Below are positions 2,809 to 10,715 of a stretch of 14,261 nucleotides of DNA, in pieces (the stretch's first letter is position 1; each line of letters begins with the position of its first letter). The translations under genes and the position numbers were made by a program. Origin of the DNA: a virus; UHGV virus genome UHGV-0074784; one strand, given 5' to 3'. The notes under the pieces are model-generated. The model had not been told where the DNA came from and ran no database searches. It saw only the letters and a program-made list of their open reading frames with translations.

Positions 2809-3810
2809 GTGACCGTGAGAGCACTACTGACCCCTGAAATTGCCCCGTGTATGGGGATCGTATTGTTCAGGCCAGGTTCAGAGCTGATGCCCCTGTTTAT
2901 GCAGGGGCGTGTCCTGCTGGAGCCTGAGCCGGAACGTTATTCATCTTTCGCCAGTGGTGCCGTTCCGGCGGCATCACAACCGCTGGCGGATGATCCTGCC
3001 GTTCGGGCCGTGTTCCGCAATGAGGCAGTGATCCGTCGTGCTGGTGGCGTGGAATGTCTTGAAAGCTGGTTACTTCGTGAAAAAGGCTGCCAGTGGCCTC
3101 ATTCCGACTGGCACAGCGAGAACATGACCACAATGCGGCACGCGCCGGGCGCAATCCGTCTGTGCTGGCACTGCGATAACCAGTTGCGCGATCAGTTCAC
3201 GGAACGGCTGGAATCAATGGCAACGGATAACTGTGCCCGCTGGGTGTTATCTGTTGTGCGCCGTGATCTCGGTTTTGATGATAGTCACGTTGTGACAATG
3301 CCGGAACTGTGCTGGTGGCTGGTTCGTAATGACCTGGCGGATGCCTTACCGGAAAGTGCAGCCCGTAAGGCACTGAGATTACCGAAGCCTGTTGTGCCGT
3401 CTGTTACCCGGGAAAGTGACCTTGTGCCTTCGGTTCCTGCCACCAGCATCATCCAGGATAAAGCGAAAAAGGTGCTGGCGCTGAAAGTGGATCCGGAGTC
3501 GCCGGAGTCTTTTATGTTACGCCCAAAACGTCGCCGCTGGGTTAATGAAAAGTACACGCGCTGGGTTAAGACACAGCCGTGTGCATGTTGTGGAAAGCCT
3601 GCTGATGATCCCCACCACCTGACAGGTCACGGTCAGGGTGGAATGGGAACAAAAGCGCATGACCTCTTTGTGTTGCCTTTGTGCAGAAAGCATCACGACG
3701 AGCTGCATGCGGATACCGTGGCATTTGAAGAGATGTATGGCTCCCAGCTGGAGCTGATATTTCGTTTTATCGATCGTGCGCTGGCGATCGGCGTAATTGC
3801 GACAGCTTAA
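2809..3810 (+). CDS. DUF968-family phage protein (YdfU-like) with C-terminal Cys/His HNH-like zinc-binding motif
   Basis: 333-aa ORF with GTG start. C-terminus CACCGKPADDPHHLTGHG...LPLCRKHHDELH has CxxC...HH...CxxHH spacing typical of DUF968/HNH-like proteins encoded next to Q in lambdoid prophages (Qin ydfU-like arrangement). Confidence 0.65.
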   Translation: MTVRALLTPEIAPCMGIVLFRPGSELMPLFMQGRVLLEPEPERYSSFASGAVPAASQPLADDPAVRAVFRNEAVIRRAGGVECLESWLLREKGCQWPHSDWHSENMTTMRHAPGAIRLCWHCDNQLRDQFTERLESMATDNCARWVLSVVRRDLGFDDSHVVTMPELCWWLVRNDLADALPESAARKALRLPKPVVPSVTRESDLVPSVPATSIIQDKAKKVLALKVDPESPESFMLRPKRRRWVNEKYTRWVKTQPCACCGKPADDPHHLTGHGQGGMGTKAHDLFVLPLCRKHHDELHADTVAFEEMYGSQLELIFRFIDRALAIGVIATA

Positions 3811-4521
3811 GTGTATGGAGCGCTGAGAAGTATGAATCAACAAGACTTGAATTTTGTCAGAATAGAACTACGTCGTGCGCTGTTTGACTTCTCTGGGGGG
3901 ACAAAAGGGCAGCTTGAGGCTTTCACTGAACACCCACCAGCAGACAAAAATGCCACTCCACGCCGTGGAATTCATCTTGTCGAACTCGAAGGTGATAAGG
4001 GACCACGCTTTGTTAACTCGCTTTCCGCGCCATTGTACGTGCAAGAAACACGTAGCCGCCCCAGGCCAATGCCGCCGATAAAAGATGTAGAATTTGAGTC
4101 CGCGCCGTGGCGTAGGGCAGTGTCCGCGCTTAGTGGATACCAGCAGGCTTGGTTGCGGTACTGTTACGGTTTTGACCTTAACTATACGCACCAGGTGATG
4201 ATGTGTGAATACGTCTGGAAGGCTTATCAGAAATGCTTGGGTAAAAACTCACTTCAGGAGCGCGTAGTAAAAAAACTAATAGGCCTAGTATGGCTTGCAG
4301 GACAGGAAATTGCTGCAACCCGAAACAATGAAACCTATAAAGACTACGCTGGTGCGGCGCTGGCCCGTATGGTTAGCGTTGACCGTTCGACATGGTTGCG
4401 CGTCTATTCAGGCCACTGGGCTGGGTTAAAGGCCGCTTTTACCCAGCTTGATGAGTCTGCGCTGGCCATGGCTCTTGAATACTATGAGGATGAAGAAGCT
4501 CTCAAAGTGGGAGAAATATGA
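3811..4521 (+). CDS. Putative late-gene antitermination protein Q (non-lambda Q family); true start may be ATG 3832
   Basis: Sits immediately upstream of an intergenic region with an intrinsic terminator and the lysis cassette, and downstream of the DUF968 gene (same order as ydfU-quuQ). Assignment is mainly positional; no clear zinc-finger motif as in lambda Q. Confidence 0.5.
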   Translation: MYGALRSMNQQDLNFVRIELRRALFDFSGGTKGQLEAFTEHPPADKNATPRRGIHLVELEGDKGPRFVNSLSAPLYVQETRSRPRPMPPIKDVEFESAPWRRAVSALSGYQQAWLRYCYGFDLNYTHQVMMCEYVWKAYQKCLGKNSLQERVVKKLIGLVWLAGQEIAATRNNETYKDYAGAALARMVSVDRSTWLRVYSGHWAGLKAAFTQLDESALAMALEYYEDEEALKVGEI

Positions 4522-4613
4522 CGTAAATTTCACTATCTCCTTCAAACGCGCTTGCAAAATACAACAAAATAAGCCATATTGGAAGCATGTTTGATATGTT
4601 GCCAAAGTTTTAT
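4522..4613 (+). promoter_or_regulatory. Putative late promoter / Q-utilisation (qut) region
   Basis: Positional inference only. TTGCAA at 4553-4558 is -35-like, but no clean -10 hexamer at 17 +/- 1 bp could be found by eye. Confidence 0.25.
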
Positions 4614-4640
4614 AAACCCGCCGACGAGCGGGTTTTTTGA
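4614..4640 (+). terminator. Rho-independent terminator (tR'-like) downstream of Q
   Basis: AAACCCGC-CGACGA-GCGGG followed by TTTTTT: 5-bp GC stem (4617-4621 / 4628-4632), 6-nt loop, T6 run at 4633-4638. Confidence 0.8.
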
Positions 4641-4714
4641 TATGCGACATAACCTATAACATTTTTTATAAAATAAAATATAATTGCTTTACCATTATCC
4701 TGTGAGTTGAGCAA

Positions 4715-5500
4715 ATGTATATATTTGAATTGACCAAACCTGGCAACTGGCTTGAAAGTGAAGACAAAGAGTGGTCTTGGAAAATAGAACGGCTTTTGGA
4801 CCATCTTGAATTTGCATTTTATGAGGCTAATGTTGCATTAAATTTATTTATGCAGCAGCAAAACAATCAAATAGAACAACAAGGGGTTTCGCAATTGCAA
4901 TGGGAAAAAGAAATGCAAGAACGAAGAACCATCGAAACACTAGTTCGTGAGGAGTTAGGTTTATCCCCTTTTGAGAATCCTGAAAACATACAATTTGAGG
5001 TGGACGCGAGGTTTAAACGAGAAAAGTGGAGTTCTGGTGAAATTCCACGTAGCCACAAACATTGTGTGATTTTTATTTATGCAAAATCTTTTCTTTATTC
5101 TCTTGATACTATTGATAAATTTATAAAGGTTATTTCGAATGAACCTTATGCTCCTGAGTCGATAAAAGCCCTACACGATCAGATAGGTAAAGATTTTCCT
5201 GATCTCAGAGGGGTTAGGAATTCAACTCAACACCTCGAAGATAGGGCTCGAGGGCTTGGCGCAGGGAGAGAACCGAAGCCTTTGAATCTCCAGCCTATAA
5301 GTAATACCTTCATAAATGCACCGCAAGGTGCTTTGATATTAAATAATCTGAATGGCACCAAATTCGGGTCAACTATGTCTGATGGTCACTATGGTGAAGT
5401 GGACATTTCACCTGAATCGTTATCAAAAATGCAAAGTATTGTTCAGGGCGTTCTTGACTCGTTTAAGTGGGTTGGTAATCAGCAACACTTACCAAGTTAA
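4715..5500 (+). CDS. Hypothetical AT-rich cargo (moron) protein, 261 aa, with an R-N-x3-H (HEPN-like) motif; candidate toxin or abortive-infection effector
   Basis: Long ORF in a visibly AT-rich island (about 30-43% GC in sampled 60-bp lines versus ~52% in flanking phage genes). VRNSTQHLEDR at about residues 168-178 fits the Rx4-6H HEPN signature with the typical polar residue after R. Flanked by terminators at 4614-4640 and 5523-5549. No signal peptide or TM segment apparent. Confidence 0.6.
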   Translation: MYIFELTKPGNWLESEDKEWSWKIERLLDHLEFAFYEANVALNLFMQQQNNQIEQQGVSQLQWEKEMQERRTIETLVREELGLSPFENPENIQFEVDARFKREKWSSGEIPRSHKHCVIFIYAKSFLYSLDTIDKFIKVISNEPYAPESIKALHDQIGKDFPDLRGVRNSTQHLEDRARGLGAGREPKPLNLQPISNTFINAPQGALILNNLNGTKFGSTMSDGHYGEVDISPESLSKMQSIVQGVLDSFKWVGNQQHLPS

Positions 5501-5522
5501 CTAAACTTAATTATTCATATTA

Positions 5523-5549
5523 AGGCTGCCATATGGCGGCCTTTTTATT
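5523..5549 (+). terminator. Rho-independent terminator downstream of moron A
   Basis: AGGCTGCC-ATAT-GGCGGCCT forms an 8-bp stem with one G-U wobble, followed by TTTTTATT. Confidence 0.7.
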
Positions 5550-5593
5550 CCCTTCACTTTTGAGAGGATTCACAGCAATTAAGAGGGGGCTAA

Positions 5594-5980
5594 ATGTCCG
5601 ATCCGATTTCCGGCACAGGGTTAGCTGCTGGAGTCCTGACAGGCGCTAGTGTTTATGGACTGCTGACCGGAACTGATTACGGTGTTGTATTTGGCGCATT
5701 TGCAGGGGCTGTATTCTACATCGCAACAGCAGCAGATCTGAGTTTATCGCGTCGACTGGCATATTTTATCGTGTCGTATATTGCCGGAATCCTTTGCTCT
5801 GGGTTGGTTGGCTCCAAGCTGGCAAACTTGACCGGATACAGTGATAAACCTCTGGATGCTATTGGTGCCGTAATCGTCTCTGCTTTAGCCGTTAAAATCC
5901 TGACGTTTCTGAATAACCAGGATATCGGTTCGCTGGTGGCGCTTATAACGCGCCGGGGAGGTTCAGGTGGAGCTAAATGA
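5594..5980 (+). CDS. Phage holin (multi-TM small membrane protein)
   Basis: 128 aa, glycine/alanine-rich hydrophobic segments (GLAAGVLTGASVYGLLTG, VVFGAFAGAVFYIATAA, IVSYIAGILCSGLVG), charged C-terminus. RBS AAGAGGGGG upstream. Immediately precedes the endolysin. Confidence 0.7.
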   Translation: MSDPISGTGLAAGVLTGASVYGLLTGTDYGVVFGAFAGAVFYIATAADLSLSRRLAYFIVSYIAGILCSGLVGSKLANLTGYSDKPLDAIGAVIVSALAVKILTFLNNQDIGSLVALITRRGGSGGAK

Positions 5981-6248
5981 CCCGACAGCAACTATAAATG
6001 CGCTGTTATGTGCTTGTGTTGTTATTACTCTGATGTTTTATCGTCGTGGTGATTCGCGGCATCGTCCTTGGGTTTCACGTTTAGCCTGGCTGATTACTGT
6101 TACATACAGTGCTGTTCCGTTGGCCTATCTCTGTGGGATTTATCCCCATTCCTCATGGCCCATTATCGTGGCGAATACTATTTTTCTTTCCGTGCTGGTG
6201 GCCGTCAGAGGCAACGTTGCACGTCTGGTTGATCATCTGAGGCACTAA
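5967..6248 (+). CDS. Second small membrane protein of the lysis cassette (holin/antiholin-like)
   Basis: 93 aa with GTG start preceded by GGGGAGG; two or three hydrophobic segments (LLCACVVITLMFY, LAWLITVTYSAVPLAYLCGI, IIVANTIFLSVLVAV). Overlaps the upstream holin end and the endolysin start. Confidence 0.5.
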   Translation: MELNDPTATINALLCACVVITLMFYRRGDSRHRPWVSRLAWLITVTYSAVPLAYLCGIYPHSSWPIIVANTIFLSVLVAVRGNVARLVDHLRH

Positions 6249-6862
6249 TGAACCAACAATTATTTCAAAAGGCGGCTGGTATTAGCGCCGGGCTGGCTGC
6301 GCGCTGGTTTCCGCACATTGATGCGGCGATGAAGGAATTCGGCATTACAGCACCAGCGGATCAGGCAATGTTTATCGCTCAGGTAGGCCATGAGTCGATG
6401 GGGTTTAGCGCCGTAGTTGAAAATTTTAACTACACACCATCTGCGCTGGTGGCGTCGTTCGGAAAGAGGATTACACAGCAGCAGGCTGATGCCCTTGGCA
6501 GAACATCCGGACATGCAGCTCGTCAGGATGCTATTGCCAATCTTGTGTATAGCAACCGACTGGGTAACAAAGCACCAGGTGATGGCTGGAAATATCGTGG
6601 TAGAGGATTAATTCAAATCACTGGCCTCCATAATTATCGCATCTGTGGCGCGGCGCTGAAGTTAGATCTGGTGACTTCACCTGAACAACTGGAACAGGAG
6701 CTACAGGCCGCGCGCTCAGCTGCATGGTTCTACACCTCTAAAGGTTGCATGGTCTACGGTACCGATATTAATCGTGTTACGCGCATCATTAACGGCGGTC
6801 TGAACGGTATTGAGGATCGTAAGGTTCGATACAACAAGGCGCGGGCGGCGCTGCTGGTATGA
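6248..6862 (+). CDS. Endolysin, glycoside hydrolase family 19 (chitinase-like lysozyme)
   Basis: 204 aa with motifs typical of GH19 phage endolysins (FIAQVGHESMGF, YRGRGLIQITGLHNY, INGGLNG). TAATG start/stop coupling with the preceding gene. Confidence 0.85.
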   Translation: MNQQLFQKAAGISAGLAARWFPHIDAAMKEFGITAPADQAMFIAQVGHESMGFSAVVENFNYTPSALVASFGKRITQQQADALGRTSGHAARQDAIANLVYSNRLGNKAPGDGWKYRGRGLIQITGLHNYRICGAALKLDLVTSPEQLEQELQAARSAAWFYTSKGCMVYGTDINRVTRIINGGLNGIEDRKVRYNKARAALLV

Positions 6863-7251
6863 AGATGAGTTATTGGGCGCTCATTTTAACGTTTATTGCT
6901 TGTATTGCTGGTGGTCTTGTTTGGTCAGCGAATCACTATCATGGAAAGTTTCTGGAGGAGCAGAAGCGTGCTGACGCTGCGGAACAGCGAGCTGATTCTA
7001 CTGAGGCTATCACCGCGAATGTTCTGCGTACTATGGCAATAACGAACATCATTCAGGAGGCGAATCAATATGCAAAACAGCAGATCGCACTGGAGTCACA
7101 GAGAACCCAGGAAGATATCAAAGTGGCTGTTGCGGATGATGATTGTGCTTCACGTCCTGTGCCTGCTGCCGCTGCTGACCGGTTGCGGAAGTACGCGAAC
7201 AGTTTACGTGAGCATTCCGAAGACTCCACTACCAGTCAGCTTGACTTCTGA
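6859..7251 (+). CDS. i-spanin (Rz-like)
   Basis: 130 aa with N-terminal TM helix (YWALILTFIACIAGGLVW) followed by a charged, coiled-coil-like periplasmic domain. ATGA overlap with the endolysin stop. Contains the start of an out-of-frame lipoprotein ORF. Confidence 0.7.
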   Translation: MKMSYWALILTFIACIAGGLVWSANHYHGKFLEEQKRADAAEQRADSTEAITANVLRTMAITNIIQEANQYAKQQIALESQRTQEDIKVAVADDDCASRPVPAAAADRLRKYANSLREHSEDSTTSQLDF

Positions 7252-7384
7252 TACACCTGTACCGTTTATACCCAACCCACTGACGTATGGTGCAAGTCTT
7301 GATTTGAATGTAAGTTTGTTATCCGCGTTGGCTCAATGTAATAGGGATAAGTCTGATATCAGAATCATTGATAATCAAAATTGA
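7136..7384 (+). CDS. o-spanin (Rz1-like outer-membrane lipoprotein), overlapped architecture
   Basis: +1 frame relative to Rz; MMIVLHVLCLLPLLTGC supplies a signal peptide with lipobox LTGC. Mature part is proline-rich (PKTPLPVSLTSDTPVPFIPNP). Extends 133 bp beyond the Rz stop. Confidence 0.7.
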   Translation: MMIVLHVLCLLPLLTGCGSTRTVYVSIPKTPLPVSLTSDTPVPFIPNPLTYGASLDLNVSLLSALAQCNRDKSDIRIIDNQN

Positions 7385-7465
7385 TGTATATTTTTATCGT
7401 CATGTAGATAACGAACAAGGTATTCCTCTGATACGTTTCGTTGAATACAGGTCATGGGTAGGCAT

Positions 7466-7497
7466 TGCAATATCGCTTCGAAATTATCTGTGATAAT
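7466..7497 (+). promoter_or_regulatory. Possible sigma70 promoter for moron B (extended -10 TGTGATAAT; -35-like TTGCAA at non-optimal spacing)
   Basis: TGnGATAAT at 7489-7497 in the AT-rich intergenic region about 90 bp upstream of the ATG at 7588; TTGCAA at 7466-7471 gives a 20-bp spacer. Sequence-only prediction. Confidence 0.25.
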
Positions 7498-7587
7498 GCT
7501 CTTAATTTTGAATGTATGTATTTGGGAAAAGAGATAAAGTAATAGTCTAATTAATGGAGATATCCACAAAACACAAGAGGGACTATT

Positions 7588-8094
7588 ATGCGACCAGATC
7601 AATTTTTCTATCCAGATACTTTTACCTTTAATTCATCCACCTATTATGGTCAACGTGACTCATCTAAAGGTCGATTGTATATTCTTATTGAAAGTGACTT
7701 ATGTCCATTTAATATCGGCGATATCATTGTGCAAAAAATGGTCGACAGGGAAAGACTATTTGAAGTGCTTGATTACGAGGTACAAATTAGTCTCGAGGCT
7801 GGTTGCCCTGGCTACTCACATTTGGCGGTATTGATAGTGAAGGCATTGGATGTAAAAGAGAAGCCGAAGCAGATTACGACCCATTTGACGTTTAACGGTG
7901 CTATTAATGCTGGTGGTGATTTTCAAGCCGGTAATGACAATTCGATCACAAAGAATATAACCATTCAACAACTACATGATGCTATAGAGCATTGCAATGA
8001 TCCAGAGGTTAAAAGCCTTTGGCAAAAGCTATTGGAAAATCCGACGTTTGCTTCAATTGCTTCAATATTGGCAAAAAGTGCTTTAGGACAGTAA
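7588..8094 (+). CDS. Hypothetical AT-rich cargo (moron) protein, 168 aa, unknown function
   Basis: ORF with good RBS (AAGAGGGA, 7571-7578) in an AT-rich island (~35% GC in a sampled line) between the spanins and the HNH/terminase genes. Followed by an intrinsic terminator. Soluble, no TM segment or signal peptide, no recognisable catalytic motif. Confidence 0.55.
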   Translation: MRPDQFFYPDTFTFNSSTYYGQRDSSKGRLYILIESDLCPFNIGDIIVQKMVDRERLFEVLDYEVQISLEAGCPGYSHLAVLIVKALDVKEKPKQITTHLTFNGAINAGGDFQAGNDNSITKNITIQQLHDAIEHCNDPEVKSLWQKLLENPTFASIASILAKSALGQ

Positions 8095-8103
8095 TTCATC
8101 AAG

Positions 8104-8127
8104 CCCCATTCAATATGGGGTTTTTAT
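8104..8127 (+). terminator. Rho-independent terminator downstream of moron B
   Basis: CCCCAT-TCAAT-ATGGGG: 6-bp stem (8104-8109 / 8115-8120) followed by TTTTTAT. Confidence 0.75.
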
Positions 8128-8151
8128 GCTTATTACAAAGAGTTTTCTTCA

Positions 8152-8627: not shown

Positions 8628-9122
8628 ATGGCTGGAACGGCGGGGCGTTCCGGGCGTCGCCCCAAGCCAACGGCGCGCAAGGCGCTGGCCGGAAACCCCG
8701 GCAAGCGAGCCCTGAATAAAGATGAACCTGTTTTTACGCCCATCAAAGGTGTTGAGCCACCGGAGTGGTTCGCAGAAGAAAATCTCCCTCTCGCCACGAT
8801 CATGTGGCAACTGACAACCAAAGAACTCTGCGGTCAGGGCCTGTTGTGCGTGACTGACCTCGCGGTGCTTGAGCGGTGGTGCGTGGCCTATGAGTTCTGG
8901 CGACGTGCCGTGAAAAATATTGCCATACAGGGCAACACCATCACCGGTGCAATGGGCGGCAGGGTCAAAAATCCGGAGCTGACCGCCAAAAAAGAACAGG
9001 AGTCCGAGATGAGCAGCACGGGGGCAATGCTCGGACTCGACCCCAGCAGCCGCCAGCGTCTGATTGGCCTGGCGGGGCAGAAGAAAGCCACTAACCCGTT
9101 TCTGAAAATCATCGAGTCATGA
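8628..9122 (+). CDS. Terminase small subunit (P27-family type)
   Basis: About 165 aa with a basic N-terminus ([25 protein letters not shown]), typical of P27-family small terminases. RBS AGGAG at 8615-8619. Directly precedes the large terminase with ATGA overlap. Confidence 0.8.
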
Positions 9123-9925
9123 GCCGGAAATCTTACCCCAACGTAAATGCTGCCAATCAGTATGCCCGTGATGTTGTGCGCGGAAAGATTGTGGCCTGCC
9201 AGTTTGTGATTCAGGCCTGCCAGCGCCATCTTGATGACCTGATGGCGGAAAAAAGTAAGTCGTTTCGTTACCGCTTCGACAAGGACCTGGCTGAACGGGC
9301 TGCCAAATTTATTCAGCTGTTGCCGCACACCAAGGGGGAGTGGGCATTCAAGAGGATGCCCATCACGCTGGAGCCGTGGCAGCTCTTTGTGATCTGCTGT
9401 GCGTTTGGCTGGGTCAATAAAGGCTCCCGGCTGCGCCGCTTCCGGGAGGTGTATACCGAAATCCCCCGTAAGAACGGCAAATCGGCAATCTCTGCCGGTG
9501 TTGCCCTGTATTGTTTTGCCTGTGATAACGAGTTTGGCGCGGAAGTGTATTCCGGTGCCACGACAGAGAAACAGGCGTGGGAAGTCTTTCGCCCGGCGCG
9601 ACTGATGTGTAAACGCACACCCATGCTGACGGAAGCGTTCGGGATTGAGGTTAACGCCTCAAACATGAACCGTCCGGAGGATGGCGCGCGGTTTGAACCG
9701 CTGATCGGTAACCCCGGTGATGGTTCATCACCCCACTGTGCCGTGGTGGATGAATATCACGAGCACGCCACCGATGCGCTTTATACCACGATGCTTACCG
9801 GGATGGGCGCGCGACGTCAGCCACTGATGTGGGCCATCACCACCGCCGGGTACAACATTGAGGGGCCGTGCTACGACAAGCGGCGGGAAGTTATCGAGAT
9901 GCTCAACGGTTCGGTATGTTTCTGA
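9119..9925 (+). pseudogene. Terminase large subunit, N-terminal ATPase domain only (C-terminal nuclease domain missing)
   Basis: Walker A-like EIPRKNGKS and Walker B-like AVVDEYHE are present, but the ORF stops after 268 aa (...EMLNGSVCF). Intact large terminases of this type are roughly twice as long. Downstream sequence switches to tail-gene coding. Confidence 0.75.
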
Positions 9926-9929
9926 TGCG

Positions 9930-10715
9930 ATGAAAGTGGTGGATTCTGCCGTATCGGATGCCGCCAGGCTGTTGCAGGGGGATATCTCGGTACTTCTGCC
10001 GCCGCCATCGTCAGGCAAAAATTTCGTTGAGCAGGTGCAGAAAATGTGGCGTACCGGGAAACGCCTTTATGGTAACGCCAGCGACCTGGTCACCATGATC
10101 AAAACGCTTTCCGGTGTCAGCCTCGGCAGCGATCTGCAACCGCGCGGCGTCTGGAAAACGGACAGTAAAACCACCGCCACGGCGACGCAGCAGCGTAACG
10201 TGGTTGCCAGCACCCTTCGTACGACCGCAATCAGCGAAGCGGCGTATGCCGTCACCCGATTGCCTGCGCCAACAACTTCCGCGGTGATGCAGAATTCCGC
10301 AGTGGGGCAGGCAACAACACCCGCGCAGAGCACTGGCTGGCCTTCCATCACGCATCCGGCACTGAACAATGCACCGGCGGTGAAAAACACGGTTGACCTG
10401 CCGACGTGGGAAGAACTGACTGACATTCGCGACACACTGAATACGGCAATTGATAAGGAGTTGTCCCGTACAACCAGCGATGCGCTGTTTCTGGCGCTGC
10501 GCCGGGTGAAAGCAGATCTGAATGCGGATATCAACACGCGCCTTGAACAGTCTGCACGGATCATTCAGCGCACACCGGATGAGGTTTTACCCGCGCTGGT
10601 GCTGGCGGCGACCTGGTTTGATAACGCGGCGCGTGACGCGGACATTATCCGGCGTAATGCCATTACGCATCCCGGCTTTGTGCCGGTGATCCCTCTGAAG
10701 GTGCCAGTGCAATGA
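9930..10715 (+). pseudogene. Mu gp43/N-like tail (DNA circularisation) protein, probable C-terminal fragment left by a deletion
   Basis: ORF in a different frame from the terminase. Its stop overlaps the start of the gp44-like gene, as in intact Mu-like tail modules. The 5' part of the ORF-track frame (9858-9929) overlaps terminase coding and is probably not native. Assignment is by position and composition; weak. Confidence 0.4.

Follow-up and report, generated by a model that had tools for sequence, protein, structure and literature searches.

The window and its Q gene

The window, by which we mean the whole 14,261-nt stretch of DNA analysed here, is the replication-to-baseplate part of a lambdoid Escherichia coli prophage. 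Genes for RusA (1601–1990), a KilA-N protein (2010–2807) and a DUF968/HNH protein (2809–3810) are followed by the gene for a Q antiterminator of the Q82 family (3832–4521), an intrinsic terminator (4614–4640), a gene for a conserved protein of unassigned function which we refer to as the cargo (4715–5500), a second intrinsic terminator (5522–5551) and the lysis genes, all on the + strand. The lysis cassette (5594–7251; phrog_198, 217, 181 and 214) comprises a Phage_holin_8 holin (5594–5980), a Phage_holin_3_7 holin (5967–6248), a GH19 endolysin (Glyco_hydro_19, 6248–6862) and an Rz-like spanin (6859–7251), all likewise on the + strand. Its tandem holin genes (5594–6248), which precede the endolysin gene, belong to two different families and share 14 nt.

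The segment 3811–5600 is found whole in 25 of 5426 complete E. coli genomes, the best-matching of which are 99.8–99.9% identical; strains KSC64 and NCTC11129 have it at 99.9%, and the prophage of strain KSC64 is of the CPS-53/KpLE1 type, with yfdN, yfdP, yfdQ and yfdR as neighbours. Further downstream in the window, the large terminase ORF (9119–9925, 268 aa) holds the ATPase domain only, matching positions 169–382 of an 812-position profile, and overlapping it is an ORF whose sole match is to the C-terminal part of a baseplate-hub/DNA-circularisation protein, after which Mu-like baseplate genes follow (9119–10715). Judging from these truncated ORFs, head and tail genes (those for portal, capsid and tail tube) have probably been deleted, and the prophage is then defective; with this loss induction may be abortive and a normal lytic cascade is not guaranteed. 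The Q–lysis unit is intact despite the truncation of the terminase and baseplate genes. At the KSC64 locus (L101, 24820–33000) the terminase is interrupted, followed by genes for an integrase, a BRO-N protein, an Icd-like protein and a DNA primase, which looks like a P4-like satellite inserted in the prophage.

The Q gene begins with the ATG at 3832, the mechanical ORF running from a GTG at 3811; in the RefSeq entry for E. coli KSC64 the same gene is named 'bacteriophage antitermination protein Q' and starts 21 nt past the point equivalent to 3811. Its 229-aa product matches Pfam PF06323 (E 3.2e-37, 128.8 bits against a cut-off of 25) and phrog_304 (E 1.7e-71). PF06323 is the Q82 family; Q proteins fall into three families unrelated to one another, the other two being Q-lambda (PF03589) and Q21 (PF06530) (PMC9388147). 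Aligned end to end with a phage 82-type Q, also of 229 aa, the window Q shows 31% identity (BLASTP, E 5e-39, residues 1–213 of 229). The domain match and this full-length alignment bear out an earlier note on this DNA, which had taken the product of 3811–4521 for a Q protein. That the window Q is only 31% identical to the one studied member of the family counts against the phage 82-type reading given below. A sequence search of the window Q against solved structures gave no match, consistent with the absence of any Q82-family structure.

Terminator, predicted late promoter and pause element

The stop codon of Q occupies 4519–4521 and, 92 nt downstream, a consensus scan of the + strand finds the hairpin AAACCCGCCGACGAGCGGGTTT (4614–4635), followed by TTTGATATGC. 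The two arms of its 8-bp stem, AAACCCGC and GCGGGTTT (4614–4621 and 4628–4635), form eight pairs of which five are G–C, the loop is the 6-nt CGACGA, and the T run lies at 4633–4638. We refer to this element (4614–4640) as tR'. The RNA of 4606–4641 folds at −12.0 kcal/mol (z = −2.9), a stability equalled by 2 of 200 shuffles. The GC stem with six Ts that the earlier note had placed after Q is confirmed, its 'about 95 bp' from the Q stop being a fair estimate, and so is its position ahead of the AT-rich cargo (4715–5500) and the holin (from 5594). The scan gives 25 terminator-like hits across the window, where shuffled sequence gives 15.1 ± 3.9, and a single hit per 100-nt stretch is not rare; what raises tR' above chance is its conservation. 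The stem is preceded by a run of A residues, which makes a weak terminator on the opposite strand too.

Between the end of Q and tR' lies a predicted late promoter, pR', again on the + strand. Its −35 hexamer TTGCAA (4552–4557) is invariant in 72 distinct modules and identical in the 82-type pR'; it is followed by a 17-nt spacer, AATACAACAAAATAAGC (4558–4574), which is a candidate Q-binding element (QBE), and by a −10 hexamer CATATT (4575–4580), for which the 82-type pR' has TATATT at the same spacing. The predicted transcription start is the A at 4587, 7 nt past the −10, in the register of the 82-type sequence. A predicted sigma70-dependent pause element (4592–4603) then combines a TG at +6/+7, a −10-like TATGTT at +9 to +14 and a discriminator-like GCC at +15 to +17: the sequence TGATATGTT occupies 4592–4600, 11 nt past the −10, followed by GCC at 4601–4603 and by the AT-rich AAAGTTTT. 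In register with the phage 82 pR', the predicted pause positions +25/+26 (T and A, 4611–4612) come after this AT-rich stretch.

The order in the 82-type phage is TTGCAA, 17 nt, TATATT, 11 nt, TGATATTTT, GCC and AATGTTGT, the phage 82 pR' carrying TGATATTTTGCC at the positions equivalent to the window pause element. Common to both, in the same register, are TTGCAA-17-nATATT, 11 nt, TGATATnTT, GCC and an AT-rich stretch, and with +1 set 7 nt past the −10 the GCC falls at +15–17 in the window and in the 82-type phage alike. In the phage 82 pR' the GCC at +15–17 is required for the pause, the pause element consists of a −10-like sequence plus an extended −10 motif, and pausing occurs at +25/+26 with a 3' U preferred (Bird et al., PMC5001585); the QBE of phage 82 is located between the −35 and the −10 (PMC4914094). 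The PR'-qut-tR' layout put forward by the earlier note appears to hold, in that the promoter and pause signal of 4547–4613 match the characterised phage 82 pR' position by position. The window pR' matches the sigma70 consensus at only 8 of 12 positions, which is why a generic promoter scan did not list it.

A perfect 7-bp direct repeat, CAAAATA, occurs at 4555–4561 and 4565–4571 with a 10-bp period, made up of the last three bases of the −35 and part of the spacer, and would fit a dimeric or tandem Q-binding site. A clade at 60% identity has CAAAATG twice in place of this repeat. The spacer as a whole is near-invariant within the Q clade of the window and differs in every more distant clade of the Q82 family, as one would expect if the protein that reads it is specific and diverging. 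Upstream of the promoter, the non-coding stretch after the Q stop (4522–4546, CGTAAATTTCACTATCTCCTTCAAA) is conserved where Q identity is at least 59% (as GGTAACTTTCACTAACTCC...) and lacking where no gap separates the Q stop from the −35 (L011, L014, L018 and L158); it could be an UP-like element.

Counted from A4587, the tR' hairpin spans +28 to +49 and its U-tract ends at +52, so that the hairpin begins 3 nt past the predicted pause site, and a terminated leader RNA of ~52–55 nt is predicted, with its 3' end at about +52 to +55. A leader-peptide attenuator was considered as another role for this leader and rejected: 4587–4640 can be read as a 17-codon ORF, but in most loci ATA stands in place of its start codon, and other clades lack an ATG. 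An Rfam search of the leader gave no family match; sub-threshold hits to Trp, Leu and Phe leaders at 4574–4641 and 5493–5549 score 24 bits against gathering scores of 41–55 and reflect merely a hairpin with a U-tract.

Conservation of the module and of the slot behind it

Loci were sampled by relatives of the window Q, 18 from species-representative genomes and 80 from viral contigs. A pattern search for the promoter, pause element and terminator, which together we call the module, matched 93 of 100 sequences, in 75 distinct variants with Q identities of ~52–100%, from Escherichia, Citrobacter, Kluyvera, Enterobacter, Buttiauxella, Erwinia, Mixta, Rahnella and Serratia (~90 related loci, about 10 genera). 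An alignment of 72 distinct modules shows little or no variation in the −35, the greater part of the spacer, the −10 and the TGATA..TTG block, and in the MAFFT alignment (A1) the −10 columns A30, T31, A32, T33 and T34 do not vary at all. A hairpin and U-tract stand at a constant distance from the conserved promoter in all 57 distinct variants examined; each of these 57 3' segments folds into a 7–8 bp G–C-rich hairpin followed by U residues, at −6 to −17 kcal/mol (most at about −12), with about a dozen variants of the stem among them.

A covariance model derived from the alignment finds one site in the window, 4547–4644, at 111 bits, and also picks out 64 further loci, including several that the pattern had missed, one of them at 47% identity. 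In the model-based alignment of these 65 loci (A3), 86% of cells are paired and all eight pairs show changes on both sides, the observed covariation values being reached by 0 of 500 shuffles. This alignment leans towards the structure of the model, and about 12 of its rows are imperfectly aligned; for that reason a slid register is the fairer control, and with the partner moved by 1–3 columns pairing falls to 32–59%, against 86%. Alignment A1 was left out of the pair counts because the two main hairpin types sit in different registers in it.

The more distant loci of the Q82 family, in Klebsiella prophages and phage 82, keep the skeleton of promoter and pause element and have the terminator further downstream, and the pause motif is kept across Q82-family loci with Q identities of 31–100%. 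E. coli most often carries the module in a form ~80% identical to that of the window, and versions ~77% to 99% identical are present in 474 of 5426 complete E. coli genomes, annotated in none; copies also occur in many prophages of other Enterobacterales. In deposited phages, a search for near-identical DNA found only a 53-nt holin fragment, and a distant search of phage records found the module in 10, none with regulatory annotation. Hafnia phage yong2 (MZ516527.1, 35476–35565; H94) has a module 79% identical to that of the window and a Q protein just 36% identical, the regulatory DNA thus being better conserved than the protein that reads it. At two loci (L015, 8985–9082, and L017, 8544–8641) the module is not adjacent to Q but ~2 kb downstream, a distance which implies that something has been inserted between Q and pR'. 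Two others (L008 from 6748 and L012 from 6691) have an intact promoter and spacer, with the pause element and/or the hairpin replaced or lost, and are possibly decayed or rewired late switches.

Immediately behind the module lies a slot of variable content. Similarity to loci with other cargo stops at 4636–4645, right after the T-tract, and resumes at 5518–5549, at or just past the second terminator, and among the loci compared the distance from the module to the same holin type ranges from 426 to 2648 nt. Only eight of the 100 sequences carry the cargo (the window, L020–L024, L037 and L038), the slots of the others being empty or occupied by other genes. In the commonest E. coli variant (L158) the slot is empty: Q stop and holin ATG are 112 nt apart, and this gap is filled by the module and a ribosome-binding site, which leaves no room for another late promoter. 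As judged by sequence, this is the strongest single argument that the module would drive the lysis genes.

The second terminator has its stem at 5522–5543, with nine pairs of which six are G–C, and is followed by TTTTTATT; at −17.5 kcal/mol (z = −4.5) it is stronger than tR'. The same hairpin also follows a different small cargo in L034, and it is probably a backbone element that shields the holin from a cargo-borne promoter. The scheme of the earlier note, in which one terminator after Q makes cargo and lysis genes dependent on read-through, is to be amended accordingly: the terminator after Q stands, but the single-terminator layout does not, a second one at 5522–5543 also lying before the holin.

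The cargo itself encodes 261 aa and belongs to phrog_5322 (E 1e-124). Searches of the protein against Pfam, NCBIfam and PADLOC gave no hits; 416 homologs with at least 50% identity, from hosts that include Enterobacterales, Acinetobacter, Vibrio and Chromobacterium, are all unnamed or 'hypothetical'. Its AF2 model has a pLDDT of 88.9, and a fold search with this model returned only generic helical-bundle matches. The GC content of the cargo island is 0.34–0.41, against 0.49–0.56 in Q and the lysis genes. A promoter-like site, ATAACA-17 nt-TATAAT (4656–4684, + strand), precedes the gene, and no other site in the window comes as close to the sigma70 consensus (10 of 12 positions), although promoter-like hits in the window are in total at chance (13 against 12.6) and the site taken alone is weak evidence. 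In three otherwise unrelated flanking contexts, the cargo homologs keep a TATAAT-type box ~30 nt upstream of the ATG and a downstream hairpin-T terminator; this terminator is present in all prophage contexts of the cargo, and in the lineage of the window it also flanks other cargos, so it may belong to the backbone. The cassette (~4641–5520) is, as read from these features, a moron inserted between two terminators with a promoter-like site of its own. A second AT-rich island of the window (7200–8130, GC 0.32–0.41), between the spanin and the HNH/terminase genes, holds a 168-aa ORF (7588–8094, phrog_5789) followed by a terminator at 8101–8123 (−12.4 kcal/mol, z −3.3), and looks like a second moron.

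Exact-sequence look-ups place cargo homologs between Q and holin in prophages whose Q genes are of the PF06323, PF06530 and PF03589 families. In viral contigs with a cargo homolog (loci L102–L157), a Q gene lies upstream in 37 of 50, belonging to the Q-lambda family in 24, Q82 in nine and Q21 in four; the distance from the end of Q to the cargo is 149–213 nt in 36 of these 37 and 2.7 kb in the remaining one, and a holin or lysin follows shortly downstream of the cargo in most of the viral contigs. With the cargo a near neighbour downstream and on the same strand in contigs of all three Q families, co-transcription with the late operon would be the rule. In Chromobacterium (L100) the homolog stands by itself in the chromosome, and no phage genes were called in the 6 kb to its left or right.

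A probable phage 82-type switch and its passenger

From the agreement with phage 82 and the conservation described above, we consider it very probable that 4547–4640 is a complete late-gene module of the phage 82 type, that the lysis genes are reached by Q-dependent read-through and that the cargo is a moron. By homology with phage 82 and the general mechanism of Q proteins, pR' would fire constitutively, sigma70 would re-bind at the −10-like element and RNA polymerase would pause at ~+25. Where Q is lacking, the polymerase would stop at ~+53 and leave the ~52–55 nt leader; where Q is present, Q bound to the spacer would load onto the polymerase paused at +25, and the modified polymerase would read through both tR' and 5522–5543 into the cargo, the lysis cassette (both holins, endolysin and spanin) and the genes that follow. 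In the lysogen the cargo probably also uses its own promoter, and the second terminator would then keep this transcription out of the holin.

The likeness to phage 82 extends from a Q of the same Pfam family and length (229 aa) through the −35 hexamer, the 17-nt spacing, the nATATT −10, the pause element with its TG and its extent of +6 to +14, the GCC at +15–17 and the AT-rich sequence to +25, to the lysis genes downstream with two terminators ahead of the holin. The window differs from phage 82 in its spacer, AATACAACAAAATAAGC being unrelated in sequence to AACTGGATTAAAAATCA of phage 82, in its first terminator, which begins at +28 compared with roughly +60 in the 82-type phage, and in the cargo gene between its two terminators. 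With lambda pR'-qut-tR' and the pR' of phage 21 it shares a scheme in which the promoter is constitutive, polymerase pauses close to it in a sigma70-dependent manner, Q is loaded and an intrinsic terminator precedes the lysis genes, although Q-lambda and Q21 are unrelated protein families and in lambda the pause is at +16/17, the −10-like element at +2 to +7 and the leader 194 nt long.

The Stx prophages (933W, Sakai Sp5/Sp15) likewise have a passenger on the late strand between pR'/tR' and the holin, in a variable Q–lysis region (PMC8065619). The stx genes occupy the same position as the cargo and their expression depends on pR' and Q (PMC8065619), and by analogy cargo expression would be expected to rise upon Q production. 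Unlike in those prophages, the cargo is not a toxin homolog, there are no tRNA genes, and the predicted leader falls well short of the 258 nt of the StxS precursor (PMC7547250). The comparison with Stx made in the earlier note is thus one of position alone, the cargo resembling no toxin or known family.

Expression of the cargo is the point on which a second reading departs. Here the cargo is an autonomous moron, transcribed from 4656–4684 and ending at 5522–5543, and passage of the Q-modified polymerase is incidental and perhaps never occurs in this prophage. Such a reading is compatible with a real pR'–tR' and disputes only that the cargo is 'strongly expressed on induction, like Stx'. It draws on the 10 of 12 sigma70 match upstream of the cargo, the best in the window, on the TATAAT box and hairpin-T terminator kept in three unrelated contexts, on the AT-rich island, on the lone chromosomal homolog in Chromobacterium and on the apparent deletion of head and tail genes. 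It has to contend with the 37 of 50 viral contigs in which the cargo lies downstream of Q on the same strand, usually with lysis genes next, and with the fact that intrinsic terminators are ignored by Q-modified polymerase, as is established for lambda, 21 and 82. We judge it possible, though on the doubtful side. The promoter-like site makes cargo expression independent of Q likely in the lysogen, and because of that site Q-driven expression may perhaps not be the biologically relevant mode. The cassette does resemble lambdoid morons such as bor and lom in being AT-rich and self-contained, with a promoter-like site and a terminator, and in being present or absent among similar phages (definition in PMC8065619). 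Unlike these, phrog_5322 tracks one slot, from Q to holin, behind three Q families. That it is a dedicated late-operon passenger, kept in or re-entering the slot between tR' and holin because it needs the Q-driven lysis burst, and having a new fold and function, is a speculation that we consider unlikely; as such it could, for example, be set free when the cell lyses, or act on rival phages or nearby cells.

The conservation of the leader might also have another cause, namely a trans-acting sRNA of the StxS type, ~52–55 nt long and made constitutively in lysogens. In lambdoid lysogens pR' is constitutive and terminated at tR', and short RNAs are known from lambda (6S), 21, phi80, 82 and P22. 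StxS is an Hfq-binding sRNA made from pR'–tR' (PMC7547250, PMC8065619), and the short leader of the window recalls both lambda 6S RNA and StxS (PMC7547250), being highly conserved, AU-rich in its 5' part and closed by a hairpin with a U tail. All its conserved blocks are, however, already accounted for by the pause signal (TG, −10-like hexamer, GCC and AT-rich stretch) and the terminator, and it matches no Rfam family, so that we regard an sRNA as the chief reason for its conservation as improbable. There is very little chance that the hairpin only ends the early or Q transcript, or acts as an insulator in both directions, with the late promoter elsewhere, for example just before the holin: its place 92 nt past the Q stop codon and the A-run that makes a weak opposite-strand terminator would suit this, but the stretch from the Q stop to the hairpin holds a conserved promoter and pause element like those of the 82 pR', the ~45 nt between the second terminator and the holin start have no promoter-like site, and the Q–holin gap of L158 consists wholly of the module.

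As a late-gene switch of the phage 82 type, the module is, on its sequence, a distant new member of an ordinary design and leaves the textbook picture unchanged. What is gained is a base-resolution annotation of a switch that was previously without one in the records compared. The structure and mechanism of the Q82 family are still open (PMC9388147), and the natural variants give matched pairs of Q protein and spacer for working out how the QBE is recognised. This clade, in which the terminator begins 3 nt past the pause site, has a geometry that could limit the time available for Q to take effect. For its passenger, phrog_5322, the result points to a protein family that is widespread and well folded and is probably activated along with the lysis genes.
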